Positions 29,448 through 39,825 of a stretch of DNA of 64,000 nt are shown piece by piece. The DNA comes from Mayamaea pseudoterrestris (Eukaryota). Positions within the stretch are counted from its first letter, which is position 1; each line of letters opens with the position of its first letter. Made by a program: the position numbers and the translations under genes. Below the pieces are notes generated by a model. It was not told the origin of the DNA. It saw only the letters and a list, made by a program, of their open reading frames with translations, and made no database searches. The stretch spans positions 806,001 to 870,000 of the forward strand of contig BROI01000003.1 of assembly GCA_027923505.1 (NCBI GenBank), written 5' to 3'.

Positions 29448-30934
29448 CGTCTGCTAGCGAAAATAGAGCGAGGGAGCGAGGAGAAAAATCCTCGCAAGCA
29501 CTGCGTCTTCCGACACTGTAAGCTAGCGTATTCGTCTTTGCGAGTTACAAGGACTTGACCTCACGCTTGCTCAGTCCGACTTCGTCAAGTTTAGAATGCA
29601 CCTTGAGTCTTCGTTCCTCACCTCGTTGCAGCGTAGCTCTGGGTTCGCTGACGGCAATGGATGGCAACCGATCAAGTTGCTTGCCTTGCCTCTACAACGA
29701 CGATACAATCTGGAAGCTCGCAACGACAGCTCCGACTCTCTATTGCAATGTTGTTAAAGGATTGCAAGGTCGTTCGATACAAGTTACAGCGATGGAACCT
29801 CCAAGTAGCAGCCAGTCGAGCTCTTTTTCGATCAAGTGGTGAAAATGTGTTGACGGTTTCCGGTCAAGACGCGTTGCCGCAAAACCAAAGTCGGTCCCCA
29901 CTTACGCAATAGCCGGCTGGCGTAACGGCTATTCGTGGAATAATAGGGGAGGACTGCCAATGCCGGCGAAAGATACCCCTCGCTGTTTTCTCGAGTGGCG
30001 AGGAGGGGCGATCCAATGGCGAGACTGAAATTTAGGGATGACCAAAAGAGAGACGACGCGCGAAATTTTGGTAAGGACAAGGATGAATCATGACCGAAGC
30101 GTTTCAATAAAGTAAAAGTAAGACCGTATGAATGGGTGAGGTGCAATCATTCTTACAGTTCCCGCCATTCGCACCTCAGCATAGCTCCTCCAGTCAAAAT
30201 GACTCATACTCTCGCCCCATGACTCCTTTACATATAATCGTGCGATTGCGACAAAAATGGCTGTCATTACTACTCATCACTTACCAGATACCGTAGTTAT
30301 ACTAGGTATTTGTTAGATTGAAAGCTCAATGTTCAATGAAAGAAAGCTATGGTTGTCTGATCCCTCGTTCATCGTCGGTGTCCGACGACCAATCCATGGA
30401 CATCCGTCCACGCTTTCACGTCAGTTGAGACCTTCCGTTTCTCCTAAGGCTATACAAACATCTTCCTAGAATATGTCACAAGCATTGGCATTTAGAATTA
30501 TGAGCGATGAAGGCTTAAGCTGACCACGACTCACGATATCATTGGCTCGTCGAAACAAAAAGTCACCATTTTGGGCTCGCCTCGCGTGCTGGAAGGAGAA
30601 ACCGACGAAAGATACCTTCGACTGAAGCCTCTCGACCAACCATGAGAGGCGGCGGTGCGCATTGGATCTCATCCATGGTCAGTTATTTTCCTCCGTCATT
30701 TGTTTTGTTGCTGCCAATCAATCATTGGACAGTTTTTAAAGCAGCTGCACATCAAGGCTTGAGGGTCTTATAGCAGTAGCAGTAGCATTGGCATTGGATT
30801 TTTCCTCCGTCGTTGCGGTTCATCGATCGGATCATCGCCTGGAGAACGACATTCCATCTCAGTAACCAACCAACTGCTGTCTCGTCTCGTGACAGCTCTA
30901 CAACGCCGGCAGCAGAACACTTTAAATATACGCA

Positions 30935-33289
30935 ATGATTCTTGAACTCGAAAATTGGTATCTCGGCTACCAACAAATTTTGACGGATTGTCGGCCCGAC
31001 GAGGATGGAGTCTCAGGATCCGTTCTTCTGCTTTGTTCTGCCGATGTTGATGCCATGGCGGGCGCTCGCATTTGGACCTACATGCTTCGGAACGATGGTA
31101 TTTCGTATCAGATGCTTCCATGCATGAGCTACAGTCAGCTTGAAGCATCAGTGGCGGACAAAACCGCGGATGACGTGCGTGCAGTCGTTTTGATGAACCT
31201 TGGTGCCTCGAGGAACTTGACTCGGCTCTTTGAAAAGGGATTGAATGCTTCCGTCAAGGTGTACGTCTTGGATTGTCGAAGACCTGTGCACTTAGCTAAT
31301 GTACACGCTGGAAACAATGTGGTTGTCTTCTTTGACTCGGTGCAGAATGATGATGTTCCGAGCGATGGTGACAATTTGTCCGGCAATGAAAGCTCGTCCG
31401 ATGAGGAAGAAAGCGACGACGAGGACGATGCAAGCTCGGATGATGAGGGCGAGCATGAGTTTGACGACGAGAGAGATGAAGGTGAGACTGAGTTTGAAGC
31501 TGGCGACGCCGCCAATCCGCAGGACGAAACAAACTCTGCGGAAGGAGACGATGAACCTCAGGATGGACTCGACTATGACGGAGAGGACGAGAGCGAAACT
31601 GAGGGACCAGTGAAGCGACAAAAGACTGGTAAAGCAGGTAAGGGTCGCGATGACGATCTTGATTCAGGTTCGGACGAAGAGTCGGCCGTTGGAGGCAAAG
31701 AAATGACGGCCAGTACAGCACCAACGACACAACTAGGCTCGCTCCCTGCAATGACCCCACGTGAGATGCATCAGGAACGCCGTAATCGTCTTCGTACCTA
31801 CTACTCGAGCGGATCTTTTTACGGCTCGCCAGCTGCGTACATTGCCTTCCGTGTTTCAACGCAGTTGCGTTTTGGGGACAATGGTGACTTGCTTTGGTTT
31901 GCTTGGTATGTTAATCCCATTCCGATGTTCTTGATTGTCTACTCTTTCTCTGCTCACGAAACTTTATCTCGGGTCGACTCTTTTTTGCTTAGTGTTGGAG
32001 TCACGGATGCGTATCTTCACTCTCGCCTTGATATTACCGGCTACACAACGCTCGCAATGGACTTGCGCAGCCATTGCAACCGACTTTTCCCCAATGACAT
32101 GTTTCACCAAGTAGAAAACACAGTGTACGCAGAGCACTTGTCGGGAGCTGCAACAAATAGTGCAACACTGACAAAGATTAGTTTCACTGGGAGTGGGCGA
32201 ATCCTTTCTGAGCCCGACTTTCGGTTCTTTTTGCTGCGACACACTTCCTTATTTGACGCCATGGTGTGTTCTGACTTCATCTCCACGCGCTTTCAGCTGT
32301 CAACGAGTGAAGGGATGCACAAGTTGCAGGAAATGTTGGCAAAAATGGGTTATCCATTAGAAGAATGTTACCAACCTTTTGCGTTTATGAAGCCAAAGCT
32401 GCGCCGACGTTTGCGGACTCAGATTCGCGATCATGCCGAGGAATATGGGCTTGAGAATTTTGAATTTACAAGCTTCTTTCGCGTCACGGGCTATCAATCT
32501 TTGTTATCTGCTTCCGACACGTCGTATGCGGTGACGGCGCTGTTAGAGTACGATAGGTCAGTGCCAGGCCCAAAGAATTTAAGCGCCGAAGCTGAGGAAG
32601 CGGCAGAGTCGCTCCAAGCGTTTAATCTGGCCTTTGACGCTCTCAGCAAGAGCGAAGCATCAGCCGTCACACTTAATGGACTCTCAGGTGAAGGCACGAA
32701 TATGTTGGGACTGGTAAATGGGGGCAACCTTTCTGGCACGACGGGACTTGGAGCAGGTATTCGCTTGGCAATGACAATGCAACGAACGATTATGGCGACC
32801 GCAGCAAGTTTGATTGAGCGCCATGCAATAACTCGGCTTTCACACTTCCGGTATGCATACCTTACTTGTACGAGTCAGAGTGAGAACCAAGGACCGGGTG
32901 GAAACGACCTCACTCCAACCAATCGCCTACGAGCAAGCGAGGAGGAGAAAAGGCATCTTTTTGCCAAGCCACTTGCGCTCACTCGACTTGCGCACTACCT
33001 CATGGATTTGCATCGTGAGAATGAAAAATGGACGGGGAGCAAAGCACGTCCTCTCATTCTCGTGGCAGAGAAACCAAGGACAAACACTTATCTTGTCGTT
33101 GGATACGAATATACTGAGACGCCAAGCCTTTTCGTCAAGAATCGGTTCGGAAACAACTTTGAGCTTGTTGCGCAGTCGATGAATGGAACTTTCAAGTTTG
33201 ACAGTTTCGATAAGAATGTGGCGGAAGTAGGTGCAGCTGATGTGCAACGATTCATCGAGCAGCTGCATTACCTTATGGATTCGTTGTAA
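30935..33289 (+). CDS. CDC45: Replication initiation factor CDC45; probable intron 31906-31992
   Basis: DVDAMAG, NLGA, DCRRPVHLANV, LLWFACVGVTD (after splicing), RFFLLRHTSLFDAM, LAKMG, SASD, NRFG, FDSFD. Confidence 0.95.
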   Translation: MILELENWYLGYQQILTDCRPDEDGVSGSVLLLCSADVDAMAGARIWTYMLRNDGISYQMLPCMSYSQLEASVADKTADDVRAVVLMNLGASRNLTRLFEKGLNASVKVYVLDCRRPVHLANVHAGNNVVVFFDSVQNDDVPSDGDNLSGNESSSDEEESDDEDDASSDDEGEHEFDDERDEGETEFEAGDAANPQDETNSAEGDDEPQDGLDYDGEDESETEGPVKRQKTGKAGKGRDDDLDSGSDEESAVGGKEMTASTAPTTQLGSLPAMTPREMHQERRNRLRTYYSSGSFYGSPAAYIAFRVSTQLRFGDNGDLLWFAWYVNPIPMFLIVYSFSAHETLSRVDSFLLSVGVTDAYLHSRLDITGYTTLAMDLRSHCNRLFPNDMFHQVENTVYAEHLSGAATNSATLTKISFTGSGRILSEPDFRFFLLRHTSLFDAMVCSDFISTRFQLSTSEGMHKLQEMLAKMGYPLEECYQPFAFMKPKLRRRLRTQIRDHAEEYGLENFEFTSFFRVTGYQSLLSASDTSYAVTALLEYDRSVPGPKNLSAEAEEAAESLQAFNLAFDALSKSEASAVTLNGLSGEGTNMLGLVNGGNLSGTTGLGAGIRLAMTMQRTIMATAASLIERHAITRLSHFRYAYLTCTSQSENQGPGGNDLTPTNRLRASEEEKRHLFAKPLALTRLAHYLMDLHRENEKWTGSKARPLILVAEKPRTNTYLVVGYEYTETPSLFVKNRFGNNFELVAQSMNGTFKFDSFDKNVAEVGAADVQRFIEQLHYLMDSL

Positions 33290-33367
33290 TTATCTAACTA
33301 CTATAAGGCACACCGGTAAATTTCAACACTTGATATTTTAAAACACTGCAGAGTGATGGAAAAATAC

Positions 33368-35333
33368 TTACATTCCATTGGCGATCGCATTTTGAACATC
33401 TTCTACCGTGACAATCACTTCTTCGGGTGCATACGCTGGCATACGAGACGAGCCCGGACTGAGCACCTTGATTGGGCTCATGGTACCTCGCGAGGCAGTG
33501 TCGTCCCAAATAGCTCGCTTTCGCATTTCAGAGCGCACTCCCGTCAGTAGCAGCTCCGCAATGCAGCCATTACGATCGGCTCGCCAATCAGGGTCCGTGT
33601 TCGACTTGACGAGACTCTCAATGTACGGAATTGTCACTCCTTCTCCCGGAACCAATCCCTTGTCCGTTAGCTTGGCCAAGAACATGCGCGCAATCTGTTC
33701 CGATGTTGGGTCGGGAAATTGAATTGTCGTCAAGAAGTGTCCTTTGAATCCAATGTCGCTCGACAACACTCGCTGCAAGTCCAAGGGCGATCCGGTCAGA
33801 ATGACAAGTGGACTACCCGAGGGCAGCGATCGAGCAATTTCTCGCAAAGCTGCAGCGCCATGGTCACGTCCTCGTGGGCGAGCCGTGGACGGCAGCAACA
33901 TGTAGGCCTCATCAACATACAGGACGCCACTTATAGCTTTCTCCATCACCTTGCGCGTCTTGAAGACAGTTCGGGCTTCGCTCTTGGGGTCAACCAGGTC
34001 GTCCCTGCTCGCTTCGACAAAGTTGCGGCTCTTGACAGCGCCGATATCGTAGAGAATACCTGCAAGTTTGCGGGCAACTTGTGACTTGCCTGTGCCTGGG
34101 TTTCCGATAAAAGCCAAGTGTCGCGGCACGCGGGAAAGGGCACCGTCTTGAGTAGCTTCAATCTCCAAGGTACGACGCAGGCCGCGAATCTGATTCTTGA
34201 CCGTTCCAAGCCCAATCACATCGGCAAAAGCTTGTTCGACAGGATCATCAGGCGGGCATAATGAATCCTCAATCAACTGAGCTTCCAGTTCTTCGTCGCT
34301 GACTCCAGGTGGAGTAGCTTCGTCGGCGTAAGACTTTCGGACCTGGCGAAAGGCGAGACAAGGATAGAGCCAATGTCAGCATGAAATTTCTATCATGGCG
34401 ATGTGCAGCAAGAAACAAGAATACGCAAATTCAATCTCCTCTTCTTCCGTACCTGAGTAAGCAAACCGTCAATATCATGGACCGACTTGGGGTCAATCCC
34501 CGCACTATACAAGGCATGCGGCTGCTTCTCCTTAATCTCCATCAACATGGTCAACACAATATCCCGATCCTCCCCAAGTCCATCATGCTGCTCTAAACAT
34601 CGCTGCAGTTCCTTCTCCATGCGCTCGCATTTAATCTTGGCCGCGACCAAAACTTCGTCGTCGTTCGGTGGCACCGACTGTCCCTGCAAAAGTGCGACAA
34701 CATTTGGACTGGCGCCATCAGCAATGGCCAGATCCAATGGAGTATTGTTGTCGTTATTCTTTTGCAAGGCGCCGTCCGGATAGGCGTGATACAAGGCTTC
34801 GACAATGGGAAGTGGAGCATTGTAATGAGCTGCGTAATGCAAGGGCAAATTGCCGTGATTGTTCTTGGATGCTGCGCCTTCAGGATATACTTTGAGCAGA
34901 ACTTTCATGACATCAAGGGGTCCCTTTTTCCATGCCGTAAAGTGGAGGGGAAGGTTTCCGTAATTGTTAGTCATTGAGGCAGCTTCAGGGTATGCTTCCA
35001 GCAACGCTTCGGCAACGTCAAGCGGTGCTCGAAAGGAAGCGGCAGAATGGAGAGGAAGGTTACCGCGATCATTCTTGATCTTTGATTCGTTTCTTTAGTT
35101 TATAATGAGGTGATTGTTGTAAGCAAATTGATGTATAATTGATATAAAATCGGACTACATGAAGCGAAACGAAGGACTCACCTAGACGTTGGATCCTTGG
35201 CTCGAGCAATCGCAGCCTTCCATCCCTTTGCTATTTCATGAAGTTCAATAAAGCTTCCATTCTCGGCTCCAGCAAAAGCTCCTGCCGTTGTTGAGTCTTG
35301 CTCGGGCGAAACAAGGTTGGGAGCAACCATCAT
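33368..35333 (-). CDS. Ankyrin-repeat + CbbX/SpoVK-like AAA+ protein, paralog A (~588 aa); exons 35333-35182, 35092-34453, 34342-33368
   Basis: Four GNLPLH/TPLDLA ankyrin repeats; VIGLGTVKNQI, HLAFIGNPGTGKS, GVLYVDEAY, IQFPD. Introns 35093-35181 and 34343-34452 are GT-AG and frame-preserving. Confidence 0.88.
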
Positions 35334-35548
35334 GGTGGTATTGTAGTGATAGATTGCGATGGCGTCTCTGGCCGCGACGCGACGCGAGAAACCGCCCGTG
35401 ACGCGCCGGCATAGCTTGACCGGCGAAATAATTCGCACGACTGACCGCCAAAAATGGTTCGTGACTCGCCGCAGCACGAATTTTTGAAACGGCCGATGAA
35501 TCAAATGTAAAAGCGACCTGCTTGTCTCGTTTGTACAGCTTCTTCACC

Positions 35549-37637
35549 ATGACGGACACTGTCCTGCACAACCTATGCAAGGGCTTTGGGGCTCTTTTGA
35601 GTCGAAGCAAGGTTAGTATATAGCAGAATTTGAGGAGGCGAACAGCAAGATGGGGACGATGAGTGACTTGCGAAAGACCGACGGCTGTGATTAATCGGAC
35701 GCGCTGATATGCACTATCGTACAGACAATGGCAAGATGGCCCATTTTAAAGCAAAGCTTCTTGCATTAGAATCAGGCAGGAAGTCCAAAATGCTTGTTCC
35801 GAGTTTTTAATTCAGCTGGCTTTGCGCGCAGCAGCCAAGAAGTTTAAATCTTCATTGCTTGCAATTGCTTCTTCCTTTTTTGAATCGTTTTTCCTCGCTC
35901 ACTTTTGATCAATCATTACTACAGGAACCCAATTTTCCGGAGGAAGCTGCTCGACTTAATGAACGTGGAAATTTGCCTCTGCACGCAGCCTGCAGCTTTC
36001 AGGCGACGGCGGATGTTGTGGAAGTTCTGTTAAAGGCGTATCCTGGAGGAGTCAGTCAGCCGAATAGCGCAGGAAATCTTCCAATCCATCAAGCCGCCAT
36101 GTGGCAAGCTCCACTCGAAACTGTTCAGTTACTGCTCGCGCGTCATCCGCAGGGAGCCACCGTTCGCAACCAATATGGTTCGCTGCCGCTACACATGGCG
36201 GCGAGCAACCAAGCATCACCCGACGTGGTTCGTCTCTTGATAGACTCGTACCCTGATGCTCTACATTTACAAAATGATGATGGCATGACGCCCCTAGACC
36301 TTGCTGTTGCCGATGAGAGTGCTAACGAAACGATCATTGCCATGCTGGAGGGCCGTCCTCCACCACCCGAACTTTCCAAACGCCAGCAGGCGGAAAAGTA
36401 TGAGGAACGGGCGCTGGCTTTGGAACGCAAGCTAGGATCGCTTCGAAACACGGGGGGACGTCAAGATAATGACTTGAAGGTGGCGTTAGCAGCGGTTCGA
36501 CGATTGGCTGACCGATTTCCGTCGGCCTTGTACGTGGCGGGAATTGATCCGAATGAGCTGGAAATTGCGTTTTCCAATAATGCTAACCGCAAGGAGGAGG
36601 ATGCGGAACTCATTCTCATGGATGCGGTCAAGAAGCGAGCAAGTACGGCGAATCGCGATGTTCGAAACGGCGATCCAATGATGCAGCAGGGCTTGGGGTC
36701 GGGCGCAGTGAGCCCACGCGATCGATTGGAGGATTTGCTAAGTACAATTGTTGGATTGGAGCATGTCAAGAGCCAAGTGCGTGGCCTGCGCCGAACAGCA
36801 GAGATTATGGATTTGCGCGAGAGCTTAGTTCCAACAAGTCATCGAGGACGAGGACCGGGCGCTCTGGCCCTGGTGTCTCCGGCGCTTGCGGAGGAAGGTG
36901 GTCGTCCCACGGCGAGTCACATGGTATTCATGGGAAATCCGGGGTGTGGAAAGACCGCTGTCGCTAGACTTTTAGCAAAGGTGTTTCATGAGTTAGGCCT
37001 CGTACGAAAACCAAAGTTTTTGGAGGTGGAGCGCATGGACTTGGTGGCACGCGACAAGCAAAACACGATAGTCAAGACGAGAGAAGTGCTTGACGAAGCT
37101 CGTGGAGGAATATTGTACATTGATGAAGCGTTTACGCTTGGCATGGCATCGAGAAAGAATAAGGGTGACGCCGGTAATGAAGCCATTGCGGAGATTGTTC
37201 GCAGCATTGAGGAGGCTGAGAAGAATGACGCGGACAAAAACTTTCCGGTGATTATCTTGGCAGGTTTCCCGCTGGAAACGCAGGCGTTCTTAGCGTTCCA
37301 GCCCGAGCTTCGCAAGAAGTTTCCGCTCGTGTTTGAATTTCCCGATTACACATGCGCCGAGTTGGCTCACATCTTTATCGACCTTGCAGCGGCCAAGGGC
37401 TTCGACATGGAACCTTCGTTGACAGAACGGATCATCACGCAGCTCCTGGAGAAAGAGACGACGGCTGCATGGCGCGGTGAGCGCAATGGCCGCATCAGCG
37501 AAATGTTGCTAGCAGGGATTCGAACCGAGATCCGGAAACGAATGCGAAAAGCTCAGATGGAGGAACAGGATGACTTTGACCCGCAGCTCGTGGTTCGCTC
37601 TGATTTGGAGAATGTCATGCGGTCCGATTTCAAGTAA
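35549..37637 (+). CDS. Ankyrin-repeat + CbbX/SpoVK-like AAA+ protein, paralog B (~591 aa); exons 35549-35611, 35925-37637
   Basis: Four ankyrin repeats; IVGLEHVKSQV, HMVFMGNPGCGKT, GGILYIDEAF, FEFPDY. The spliced N-terminus LHNLCKGFGALLSRSKEP aligns with paralog A LHEIAKGWKAAIARAKDP. Confidence 0.9.
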
Positions 37638-38433
37638 GACTCATACGACATTGAAAATTTCTAGAATTGTATGTCAGCTTTGTTAATGTTAATAATTTGG
37701 TGTCCTTGTACTTGGCTTAGAATCCAATAGTCTAAACTGCACAGAATGCCATTCCCTGGCGGAAACTTTCAACTCTAAAGATTGCGGACAAAGCTGACGG
37801 ATGTTGTGCTCTCTGCACACCACAACAGTCAAGGTATGTCCAACTGCCCGATCTTTGATCGCGATATCAGTCATTTCCTCCCATCGACTCTACATTCAAG
37901 CATAGAATCCACTCCTGATTGCGTCCACATATTCTAACAAATGGATCAGCCGTCGCATGCTCGTCGTCCCGCACCCAGCTTAATTAAGATTATTATCAAG
38001 CTTCCCAATGGTGTGTATCCTTGCTATCGATTGATTTGCATTAGAAATAGTGAAGCTGGATCTTCAACCCGTCGGAAGACAGAGTAGCTCGACCTTTTCA
38101 CGCCGCATGGCGGACCAATCCTTGCCAATGGCCGCTGGACACCCATGCAACCCACTTGAAGAACTCGTCCAGCTGCTAATCAAAAGTTGATAACTAACAT
38201 CATGTCGCCTTCTATGAGTGATGTCCGTCGGGTCGCATCATGGAGGCATCATAATAATGGATCATGGATCTTGCTTGGATGTGTTTCAGTACCGATCCGA
38301 CACACAAATGAAAAATGAGCTTCGACGAATGTTCCGTCGCGCAATTGCGACGACCATGAACACTCGTCGTTGTCGACTGGCCGAGCATATAGCTGCGCAG
38401 ACTTAACCAATCGTAGTCGCGTCTCAATTTCTC

Positions 38434-39825
38434 ATGACTGATAAAGTAATGGATAATCGAGATGAAGGAAAAGTAGCGGATGAGACACACACACAGAATG
38501 AGGAGGAGGACTCCTCTTCTCGGGTGGATCTTTGGTGGTCGAGCATCGCGCCGCAGTATCAGTTTCGACGAAAATTAACACATCAAGAGCATGATAGCAT
38601 ATCGAGCGCGCAAGAGACAACATCAGTTACTGATCTGGAGGAGTCTTGCGACCACTGCTGTACGCAGTATTTTCCTTGTTTCGGTTCCTGCCGTCGCAAG
38701 TCGTTTCAGATCTGTCAAGTAGAAACATTAGCGTCCAGCCGACAATGTCAAGTTGTGCATGTTAATTGGAAAAATCTCATCTTGGCCTTGTTCGCATCGG
38801 TCATGCTCGGTGTTGTTCTTTACACCAAGTCGTCGATTCGTGGTCGATGGTTTCTTAACGTTGGATTGAATCGTCGTTTAAATGTTCCCTACTGGCTCAG
38901 TCGAGAAATGACAGTCACGTCCTCTCAAACGGACTTTCCAAAGTCTCAACTTTTTGTGTACCACTTGGGAAAGCACTGTCCGCCGTTCTCACCCACGTCA
39001 GTGACGTTTAAAAAGAATCGAACGCTGCAGTTTGGTCGCTACCAATATCAAAATTACTACGAATACGACTTTTTGTACCTGAACGAAGGTTCAAGAATAT
39101 TTCTAGAGATGACACAGGCACATGGCACATCGAATGTCTATGTACTTCGCGGCCAAAATGTAATGGAGCGCATTCTGAATGACGCACACCAAGACAATCA
39201 AGGTGGGTTTGAAAAGCTTGCTCTCGAAAAGCGCACTCTATCAGCCGGAGAAGCTCAAGTTCTTCGATACAATGTTACACAATCGGACGATTATATCATT
39301 GTTTACGAGGATGCATCTAAGAAACACGGACAACTGCTGGTCCAATACACAGTCGATGCAACCATGTTTGACGTTGAGGACGAGGGAGCGTCAGTGTGCG
39401 ATGACCCCCTGGGCGATTGCACCATCCGCCTATCCTTACAGCATGAGTGCATTATCGTTCAAGCCAAGCCTGATGCAAATGAACCCTTCGGTCAAGCAGT
39501 CATGTTTGTCACGATAAAGACCAGGCATCGAGTCGGGTTGATCTTTCTCCTGTCAGTGATTCCGCTCGCACTTGCACTGCTAATTTCATGCATCTATCGA
39601 GACACAGCACCGATTGGCACATACGAGCCAATTGGTGATGTAGATTTGAATGTCAATGCTTCTCCTTCGACATTTTTATATCAGGACAGCATCGATAGCT
39701 CTTTGGTGGGCATTAAGTTTGTAAACGACACCACGCAGACGATACCGATATTGAAAGGTGAGGACTTGGCGTCTGCCTTTGGATCGACTGTACGTATCTC
39801 TCCGTCCTCTATAGTGCATGTTTAG
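38434..39825 (+). CDS. Two-TM membrane protein with a lumenal domain resembling the non-RING part of plant APD1-4 E3 ligases
   Basis: 463-aa ORF with two hydrophobic helices; FLYLNEGSRI and YNVTQSDDYIIVY resemble APD-type domains (weak, by eye); no RING seen. Confidence 0.55.
   Translation: MTDKVMDNRDEGKVADETHTQNEEEDSSSRVDLWWSSIAPQYQFRRKLTHQEHDSISSAQETTSVTDLEESCDHCCTQYFPCFGSCRRKSFQICQVETLASSRQCQVVHVNWKNLILALFASVMLGVVLYTKSSIRGRWFLNVGLNRRLNVPYWLSREMTVTSSQTDFPKSQLFVYHLGKHCPPFSPTSVTFKKNRTLQFGRYQYQNYYEYDFLYLNEGSRIFLEMTQAHGTSNVYVLRGQNVMERILNDAHQDNQGGFEKLALEKRTLSAGEAQVLRYNVTQSDDYIIVYEDASKKHGQLLVQYTVDATMFDVEDEGASVCDDPLGDCTIRLSLQHECIIVQAKPDANEPFGQAVMFVTIKTRHRVGLIFLLSVIPLALALLISCIYRDTAPIGTYEPIGDVDLNVNASPSTFLYQDSIDSSLVGIKFVNDTTQTIPILKGEDLASAFGSTVRISPSSIVHV

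Follow-up and report, generated by a model that had tools for sequence, protein, structure and literature searches.

Two genes that point away from each other in the genome of the pennate diatom Mayamaea pseudoterrestris encode proteins of one design, an ankyrin-repeat domain followed by a single AAA+ module, and raise the question of why two such paralogues lie side by side and what they might do together. The genes, here termed A (MPSEU_000250400) and B (MPSEU_000250500), are located in a 64,000-nucleotide (nt) stretch of contig BROI01000003.1 (GenBank assembly GCA_027923505.1, positions 806,001 to 870,000 of the forward strand), which has a G+C content of ~49%, carries spliced genes, and is referred to as the window; all positions given are those of the window. 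We show that A and B are ancient paralogues held head to head on a short, presumed bidirectional promoter region throughout diatoms. As to function, we hold with about even confidence that they form a two-subunit, cytosolic, specialised AAA+ chaperone in which B would be the motor and A a target-binding partner without an arginine finger. A search of the literature found no paper describing the pair or its diatom architecture and no described function for A or B. New here are the A and B clades, the head-to-head arrangement at 12/12 loci, the contrast between a motor and a finger-less partner, and the missing pore-loop tyrosine.

Age, linkage, and expression of the pair

A and B are 40% identical over their ankyrin and helical parts (E 1e-44) and 35% identical over their AAA parts (E 2e-49), in line with a first-pass annotation, made from the nucleotide letters alone, that had described the pair as strongly diverged. 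Relatives were aligned as 119 B-type proteins, 76 A-type proteins, and one row found to be an outgroup (196 rows; 77 A rows when the outgroup is counted), where the B-type set was drawn from the best 120 of 311 matches (at least 64% identity), to which all B-type counts and conservation values below refer. Trees were built with FastTree on all 196 rows and with IQ-TREE on 14 A, 12 B, and one outgroup row. These trees contained an A clade and a B clade only, each monophyletic, and the branch between them had a length of 1.78 and support of 99/94 and was recovered in every one of 200 bootstrap trees.

Both proteins rank with the better conserved proteins of diatoms. B-type relatives with 64–88% identity (within the best 120 of 311) came from pennate and centric taxa that included Amphiprora, Nitzschia, Pseudo-nitzschia, Cylindrotheca, and Ditylum. 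A-type relatives, with 46–72% identity over the AAA exon, were identified in Epithemia, Seminavis, Nitzschia, Cylindrotheca, Fistulifera, Thalassiosira, Chaetoceros, Attheya, Ditylum, Coscinodiscus, Proboscia, Discostella, and a dinoflagellate with a diatom endosymbiont. Each clade mirrors the diatom phylogeny. Judged from these trees, the A/B duplication took place before the sampled centric and pennate lineages separated, because the A clade and the B clade each span both, and the supposition at first pass that the duplication is old is borne out.

Among the matches listed, all named proteins combining ankyrin and AAA domains were from diatoms or from the dinoflagellate with a diatom endosymbiont, and in the metagenome scan described below identity fell from at least 52% to at most 39%, with the lower matches covering the AAA part only. 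This points weakly to a B type restricted to diatoms, weakly because the patterns used in the scan were specific to B. The best 150 matches of an exhaustive profile search were swamped by proteins with many tandem CbbX-like AAA modules or with many ankyrin repeats, and that search is silent on single-module relatives outside diatoms.

To follow the linkage of the two genes, metagenome contigs were scanned with a B profile and 80 loci were kept. An A-type gene was found upstream and on the opposite strand in 10/10 B-type loci that had at least ~2 kb of upstream DNA, and these upstream genes were 49–72% identical to A versus 31–43% to B. Two further loci with shorter flanks carried an A-specific N-cap motif upstream on the opposite strand, which brings the head-to-head count to 12/12; this count leaves out four genomic-looking loci with 174–726 nt of upstream DNA (L013, L023, L030, and L045) and short contigs resembling complementary DNA (cDNA). 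Start codons were separated by 215 base pairs (bp) in the window and by 295–772 bp in the 12 related loci. The best named relative of the A gene was from a raphid pennate for locus L003, from Nitzschia for L038 (91%), and from Chaetoceros for L034 and L035 (100% and 79%); the six remaining loci reached at most 52–65% identity to named A proteins, with Ditylum or Chaetoceros first. More distant affinities of the loci, at 52–64% identity, were to Ditylum or Attheya. An A-type and a B-type protein of Cylindrotheca fusiformis are named from the same scaffold, as genes 24 and 26. Linkage extends beyond the Mayamaea genome, and its persistence, presumed at first pass, is evident. Loci L044 and L045 have identical B-type N-terminal context and identity values, and are probably from the same or sister organisms and not independent counts.

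A CDC45 gene beyond A and an APD-like open frame downstream of B (Table 1) were kept as neighbours only in the closest locus, L003, where the relative of the APD-like frame was 26% identical. CDC45 was adjacent in one of the six loci with at least 2.5 kb of sequence beyond A and missing from the other five. On this sampling, the A–B pair is kept as a unit while its surroundings change, since the neighbours turn over whereas the head-to-head pair persists. With gene order so poorly conserved, the survival of a divergent pair from centric to pennate diatoms argues for strong functional coupling.

Splice sites of both genes were inferred from sequence and then compared with the deposited proteins. 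The spliced translations are the same in all letters as the deposited 588-amino-acid (aa) protein of A (P0121) and 591-aa protein of B (P0001) in a scripted comparison, in agreement with the gene sizes and the 215-bp spacing of the start codons given by the first-pass annotation. Its remark that introns differ in position also held, with introns at residues 50/51 and 264 in A and at residue 21 in B. The first intron of B (…SRSK|GT, after 21 codons) occupies the same site in the window and in 12/16 related loci and is missing in L021, L042, L044, and L045. The first intron of A seems to be lineage-specific, as most relatives read through DPATRH/Y uninterrupted.

Four coded runs from one study (X1 to X4) cover the region, of which X3 and X4 are termed cDNA-like solely from their intron-free contigs. 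Contigs of X1 and X2 are continuous through the introns. Contigs of X3 and X4 lack both introns of A, with junctions that coincide exactly with the modelled borders. The intron of B is excised in a contig of X3, and a contig of X4 shows a loose end at 35923 formed by the end of exon 1 of B. Given these intron-free contigs, A and B are both transcribed and spliced as modelled, and neither is the untranscribed copy that the first-pass annotation had allowed for. Full-length transcripts of the A type and the B type also occur in several culture transcriptomes, according to their record names; contig depth gives no basis for ranking the expression of A versus B. The earlier wording ‘co-transcribed’ needs correction, in that A and B are transcribed divergently from a common intergenic region. 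The spliced A contig extends to 35366; in the spliced B contig, there are 90 nt 5′ of the exon 1/exon 2 junction, so that the untranscribed gap between A and B is at most ~150 bp. As a presumed bidirectional promoter, this compact natural region may be of use in diatom engineering.

Conserved domains and catalytic residues

The layout common to A and B comprises an N-cap helix, four ankyrin repeats, a long helix (a putative coiled coil at first pass), a HALYxAG[IM]DP linker, and one AAA+ module of the CbbX/SpoVK/EccA type; Pfam matches, structure models, and alignments here agree with what had been read from the letters, including the LHxxxKG N-cap and the ALYxAGIDP linker. Ankyrin families and the AAA family PF00004 exceed Pfam cut-offs in both proteins. 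AlphaFold models display four ankyrin repeats with a 35-residue period and a compact AAA+ module, with predicted local distance difference test (pLDDT) values of 68.7 for B and 77.3 for A. Between the ankyrin and AAA parts of the B model, pLDDT is <50 across most of residues 190–348; the A model has a single 46-residue helix (195–240) and an N-cap helix at residues 31–46. The N-cap reads ELHEIAKGW in A and VLHNLCKGF in B and is kept in 12/12 related loci that have both genes, and the linker, ALYSAGIDP in A and ALYVAGIDP in B, is conserved among orthologues. A crude hydropathy scan, run with no dedicated signal-peptide predictor, detected no hydrophobic N-terminal, signal-peptide-like, or membrane-span-like stretch in A or B, consistent with the first-pass view that neither protein carries a signal or plastid presequence. 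The near-invariant first 21 residues of B fit part of a mature protein better than a cleaved presequence.

In AAA+ rings, an arginine finger acts in trans on the ATP of the neighbouring subunit. Motif positions were assigned through a HMMER alignment of A to CbbX, in which R194 is taken as the arginine finger, a designation that PMC5437159 does not give. All 119 B sequences have the Walker A lysine, the Walker B Asp-Glu, and the first FRSRI arginine (the first finger); at the second FRSRI arginine, 92 have R and 16 have K, and the sensor-2 Arg is found in 115/119. In A, the Walker A lysine is present in 71/77 rows and the Walker B Glu in 73/77 rows, with Asp preceding it in 48 rows and Asn in 22; the first finger position is K in 73/76 and R in 3/76, the second FRSRI position is H in 35, N in 23, and R in 5, and the sensor-2 Arg is found in 49/76 sequences, with Cys in Mayamaea A. 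A complete cis set (Walker A K, Walker B D and E, and sensor-2 R) was identified in 115/119 B sequences versus 27/76 A sequences, and an arginine at one or both CbbX FRSRI positions in 119/119 versus 7/76. The Mayamaea motif strings are K-D-E-K-H-C for A and K-D-E-R-K-R for B. Linked pairs display the same pattern: B reads KDE-R-R-R in 8/9 readable loci, and A has K at the first finger in 9/10.

At the site of CbbX Tyr114, Asp is present in 110/119 B sequences and Ser in 75/77 A rows, and no aromatic residue is among the three commonest residues of any pore-loop-1 column in either the A or the B alignment. The Asn signature site of the clade, N in CbbX, is Q in 85, N in 31, and H in 2 of 119 B sequences and D in 45, E in 27, and N in 4 of 76 A sequences. 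The GY signature of the sensor-1 region is G-F in 118/119 B sequences and G-Y in 39/76 A sequences, with S in 16 (G-S in Mayamaea A). By these alignments, A keeps the Asn, GY, and sensor-2 signatures only in part, and B keeps sensor-2, with G-F for G-Y and mostly Q for Asn. Since the Walker A lysine and the Walker B Glu are kept in nearly all rows, A probably still binds ATP. A would not be an autonomous AAA+ ATPase, and a ring of A alone would be without a canonical site, because A lacks the trans-acting arginines that B keeps.

Conservation is distributed differently along the two proteins. Mean identity to Mayamaea A is 0.86 over the ankyrin domain, 0.53 over the helix and linker, and 0.59 over the AAA module, and mean identity to Mayamaea B is 0.84, 0.72, and 0.70, respectively, with the B values inflated by the choice of the best 120 of 311 sequences. 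Columns conserved in at least 90% of sequences number 105/132 in the ankyrin domain of A and 70/132 in that of B, 12/68 and 33/68 in the helix and linker, and 78/248 and 137/248 in the AAA module. The lead of the A ankyrin domain stands despite the wider sampling of A. By these measures, no other part of either protein is as conserved as the A ankyrin domain, and both ankyrin domains are under very strong purifying selection. At 21 ankyrin columns, residues are conserved within A and within B but differ between the clades.

These patterns bear on an analogy proposed at first pass, namely that the genes form a sensor and helper pair like head-to-head immune receptors. In such a pair, the A ankyrins would be the sensor or decoy and B the executor. 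The head-to-head genes, the degenerate nucleotide-site residues of one partner, and a weak nSTAND3 match in B (19.7 bits, below the 27.2-bit cut-off) would fit such a pair. Ankyrin domains with 84–86% mean identity across diatoms are the opposite of fast-evolving sensors, the trees hold two clades only and these follow the species tree, and the AAA modules are classical CbbX-type AAA+ rather than STAND (signal transduction ATPases with numerous domains) NTPases. We consider the analogy extremely unlikely to hold and set it aside.

It is also very unlikely that the linkage has survived as a neutral relic, with A as a duplicate in slow decay that has no separate function. The eroding ATPase motifs of A and the compact Mayamaea genome are what a relic would lead one to expect, but the A frame is intact in all sampled clades, A is spliced and expressed, its ankyrin domain exceeds every other part of the two proteins in conservation, and its adjacency to B has outlasted the neighbouring genes.

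Known AAA+ relatives and candidate modes of action

The best NCBIfam models for both proteins were SpoVK, EccA, and CbbX, all far below their curated cut-offs, and the best solved relatives by sequence were CbbX (3zuh/3syk) and EccA1 (9lur), with CbbX also best by fold. The first-pass placement of the modules with CbbX, SpoVK, and EccA was thus well founded. On these matches, A and B are divergent members of the SpoVK-EccA-CbbX clade of classical AAA+ proteins, as that clade is defined in PMC11513918, and are not equivalogs of CbbX, SpoVK, or EccA. That paper portrays clade members as chaperones of narrow target range whose N-terminal recruiting domains vary; bacterial CbbX is, as a rule, a homo-hexamer, a form also modelled for SpoVK (PMC11513918). 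Neither the text of that paper nor one supplement mentions an ankyrin N-domain, its figures and preprint supplements lying outside this check.

The AAA modules match CbbX 3zuh/3syk with E values of 7.8e-27 for B and 1.8e-25 for A, and in the fold search (Foldseek) with E 6.6e-15 and a template modelling (TM) score of 0.65 on the target. Unlike CbbX, the two proteins score 113.8 and 92.2 bits against a curated cut-off of 459.25, have Asp (B) and Ser (A) in place of Tyr114, carry an ankyrin N-domain, and have no plastid targeting signal that the crude hydropathy scan could see; A also lacks both FRSRI arginines. According to a review, the Y114A variant of CbbX retains ATPase activity and loses activase function, an observation on which the threading model rests (PMC5437159). 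Red algae have nuclear and plastid CbbX isoforms, CmN and CmP, that form a 1:1 hetero-oligomer in which the role of CmP is mostly structural, as reported in the same review (PMC5437159), and this provides a precedent for a paralogue pair in a 1:1 ring with unequal roles.

SpoVK, a MurG-directed chaperone of Bacillus, ranked first among NCBIfam models for both proteins (2.8e-46 and 1.6e-27). The two proteins resemble it in joining a conserved AAA module to a variable N-terminal domain, in keeping with the narrow-target logic outlined in PMC11513918. They differ in having an ankyrin N-domain, in scoring 157.7 and 96.2 bits against the curated 422.95 of TIGR02881, and in keeping the clade signatures only partly. 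PMC11513918, a study from 2024, also reports that SpoVK requires its Walker motifs and first arginine finger, and that the finger mutant is dominant negative. EccA1, a type VII secretion ATPase, shares with A and B a repeat-type N-terminal binding domain and one CbbX-like AAA module (9lur, E 8.6e-26 for B and 1.2e-22 for A), but is bacterial, has an N-domain of tetratricopeptide repeats, and is represented by a model (TIGR03922) whose cut-off is 466.65, versus 123.6 and 87.8 bits for the two proteins.

Skd3, or human CLPB, is a mitochondrial disaggregase that likewise combines ankyrin repeats with one AAA+ domain. Its hexamer (7tts) ranked 13 in the fold search, and CLPB-like clusters reached ~0.9 by language-model features. 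Its AAA+ domain is of the AAA_2/ClpB type, and a Pfam scan found no PF07724 match in A or B; Skd3/CLPB is an analogue and not a relative because the AAA+ family differs. The nearest non-diatom proteins, by language-model features alone (0.97 and 0.95), were Streptophyta clusters of 407 and 433 aa that have both Ank and PF00004 and are shorter than A and B and uncharacterised. At3g24530 is presumably such a Streptophyta protein; in the literature found, it turns up in gene lists and, at low abundance, in a kinetochore pull-down table, and nowhere else.

The hetero-oligomer envisaged at first pass gains indirect support from the trans-acting arginines that A lacks and B keeps and from the complementary constraint on the two proteins. 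If A and B form one chaperone, B would be the motor, with a full Walker A/B and sensor-2 site, and would supply the trans-acting arginine for the ATP site of its neighbour. A would be a binding specialist whose ATP-driven work needs an adjacent B; since a ring of A alone would have no canonical site, A would work beside B or without ATP turnover. A promoter in common would keep the two subunits in step, such that they are co-dosed. The ankyrin arms probably engage two different conserved clients, or two faces of one, because they differ at the 21 clade-conserved positions. The machine would probably remodel or assemble its client without classic tail threading, because both proteins lack the pore-loop-1 aromatic that CbbX activase function requires. 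The pattern thereby yields a testable model of a complete motor and a finger-less partner with a near-frozen ankyrin arm and no pore-loop aromatic, and it bears on how narrow-target chaperones are built in the CbbX/SpoVK/EccA clade and on the division of labour between paralogous AAA+ subunits.

Several points weigh against such a two-subunit chaperone. A strictly alternating (AB)3 ring would have no fully canonical interface in most species, as the invariant ATP pockets of B would face the Lys/His of A and the often-degenerate pockets of A would face the arginines of B. The perfectly conserved B site, set against an alternating ring that lacks a canonical interface, suggests that B–B interfaces exist, in B homo-oligomers or B-rich rings, with A minor, asymmetric, external, or regulatory. 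No fused A–B protein was found (0/42 long relatives with both Ank and PF00004), which is weak evidence, and no 7- or 8-mer common to the 13 intergenic regions stood above shuffles. Tight spacing by itself would be ordinary in a genome of 30.6 Mb and 11,019 genes (PMC9724779), and the inflated B conservation values belong on the same side.

One alternative, which we regard as rather unlikely, is that A and B are two independent machines, each a homo-oligomer with its own client, and share a promoter for co-timing. The two ankyrin domains are indeed distinct and each is strongly conserved, with different residues at 21 columns conserved in both; B has the full set for a homo-hexameric ATPase, and homo-hexamers are known or modelled for bacterial CbbX and SpoVK (PMC11513918). 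This account has to explain how a ring of A could function without the first arginine finger, which is absent from 73/76 A sequences and whose loss abolishes SpoVK function (PMC11513918), and co-timing alone leaves unexplained why the pair stays adjacent amid lost neighbours.

A second alternative is that A, a paralogue without the finger, regulates B or acts as its brake, by capping, poisoning, or tethering B oligomers or by holding a client for B, and is not a stoichiometric ring subunit. Co-expression of the SpoVK finger mutant with wild type is dominant negative (PMC11513918), and A naturally has K for R at the position of the first finger; the invariant B site argues for B–B interfaces, and the Walker A lysine and Walker B Glu counts make ATP binding by A probable. 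No datum sets a regulator apart from the two-subunit chaperone, and a brake would have no need of a near-invariant ankyrin domain. We judge this alternative unlikely.

A more specific form of the two-subunit chaperone, and one that we think improbable, is a diatom-specific, obligate hetero-oligomer with a novel mode of working, which acts as a non-threading AAA+ switch or assembly chaperone. In it, A would gate the ATP sites of B and the two near-invariant ankyrin arms would clamp two conserved clients of a diatom-specific structure, such as the cytoplasmic face of the silica-forming machinery, a site of action of the ankyrin proteins dAnk1-3, which have no AAA module.

Feature coordinates and further observations

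The features of the locus are listed in Table 1. No further copy of A or B was found within the 64-kb window.

Table 1. Positions of genes, domains, and motifs of the A–B locus and its neighbours in the window.
Feature	Position	Strand	Details
Gene A	33368..35333	-	MPSEU_000250400, 588 aa; exons 35333-35182, 35092-34453, 34342-33368 (with stop)
Gene A introns		-	89 nt and 110 nt; after residues 50/51 and 264
Intergenic region A/B	35334..35548	.	215 bp, ATG to ATG; presumed bidirectional promoter and 5′ untranslated regions of both genes
Gene B	35549..37637	+	MPSEU_000250500, 591 aa; exons 35549-35611, 35925-37637 (with stop)
Gene B intron	35612-35924	+	313 nt, GT..AG; after residue 21
A N-cap helix	35196..35246	-	Residues 30-46, ELHEIAKGWKAAIARAK; [DE]LHELAKGWKAA in 12 related loci
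A ankyrin domain, four repeats	34675..35073	-	Residues 58-190; Pfam Ank_5 1.2e-21; four helix pairs
A long helix and HALYSAGIDP linker	34489..34662	-	Helix 195-240, linker to residue 252; model, alignment
A AAA+ module	33500..34246	-	Residues 297-545; aligned to CbbX
A Walker A, GNPGTGKS	34082-34105	-	CbbX alignment, orthologue counts
A loop at pore-loop-1 position, VDPKSEART	33968-33994	-	Without aromatic; CbbX alignment
A Walker B, VLYVDE	33908-33925	-	CbbX alignment, orthologue counts
A FKGHF at CbbX FRSRI site	33734-33748	-	CbbX alignment
A sensor-2 position	Cys524	-	CbbX alignment
B exon 1, conserved N-terminal motif	35549..35611	+	MTDTVLHNLCKGFGALLSRSK; near-invariant at extreme N terminus, 16 related loci
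B ankyrin domain, four repeats	35958..36356	+	Residues 33-165; Pfam Ank_5 2.9e-17; model
B helical region and linker	36369..36581	+	Residues 170-240; linker ALYVAGIDPNELE
B AAA+ module	36714..37556	+	Residues 285-565
B Walker A, GNPGCGKT	36933-36956	+	Alignment
B loop at pore-loop-1 position, VARDKQNT	37044-37067	+	Asp398 at CbbX Tyr114 site; alignment
B Walker B, ILYIDE	37110-37127	+	Alignment
B LRKKF at CbbX FRSRI site	37308-37322	+	Alignment; first finger R484
B sensor-2 residue	Arg544	+	Alignment
CDC45 gene	30926-33289	+	Pfam CDC45 E 1.1e-131; convergent to A, 78 bases between stop codons
APD-like open frame	38407-39825	+	472 codons; APD1-4 E3 ligase middle domain, 25.7 bits vs cut-off 25, borderline; downstream of B

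Contigs of run X2 have many single-base differences from the window within 33000–38000 (12 in one 2.7-kb piece), and a 20-base insertion behind 37897 is common to three of the runs X1 to X4. Both look like allelic or strain variation.

Ankyrin proteins of diatoms have been described at the silica deposition vesicle (dAnk1-3). The main texts of two papers on these proteins mention no AAA module, and a dAnk sequence in print has a coiled-coil-like tail at its end. Separately, a 64-kDa ‘AAA domain-containing protein’ of Thalassiosira pseudonana, THAPSDRAFT_21258, matches A or B in size and is reported from the bulk fraction enriched in silica deposition vesicles (PMC9894196 supplement). It is absent from both the co-expression cluster and the final vesicle proteome of that study (PMC9894196), and a search found no paper on it. 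The tags MPSEU_000250400 and MPSEU_000250500 do not appear in two supplementary files of the Mayamaea copper-response paper.

The exhaustive profile search also returned very many long proteins (1000–4500 aa; P0241-P0387) that contain three to eight tandem CbbX/SpoVK-like AAA modules and outscore the single-module relatives. Some fungal proteins with tandem modules pair CbbX/SpoVK-like AAA modules with superfamily 1 (SF1) helicase families.

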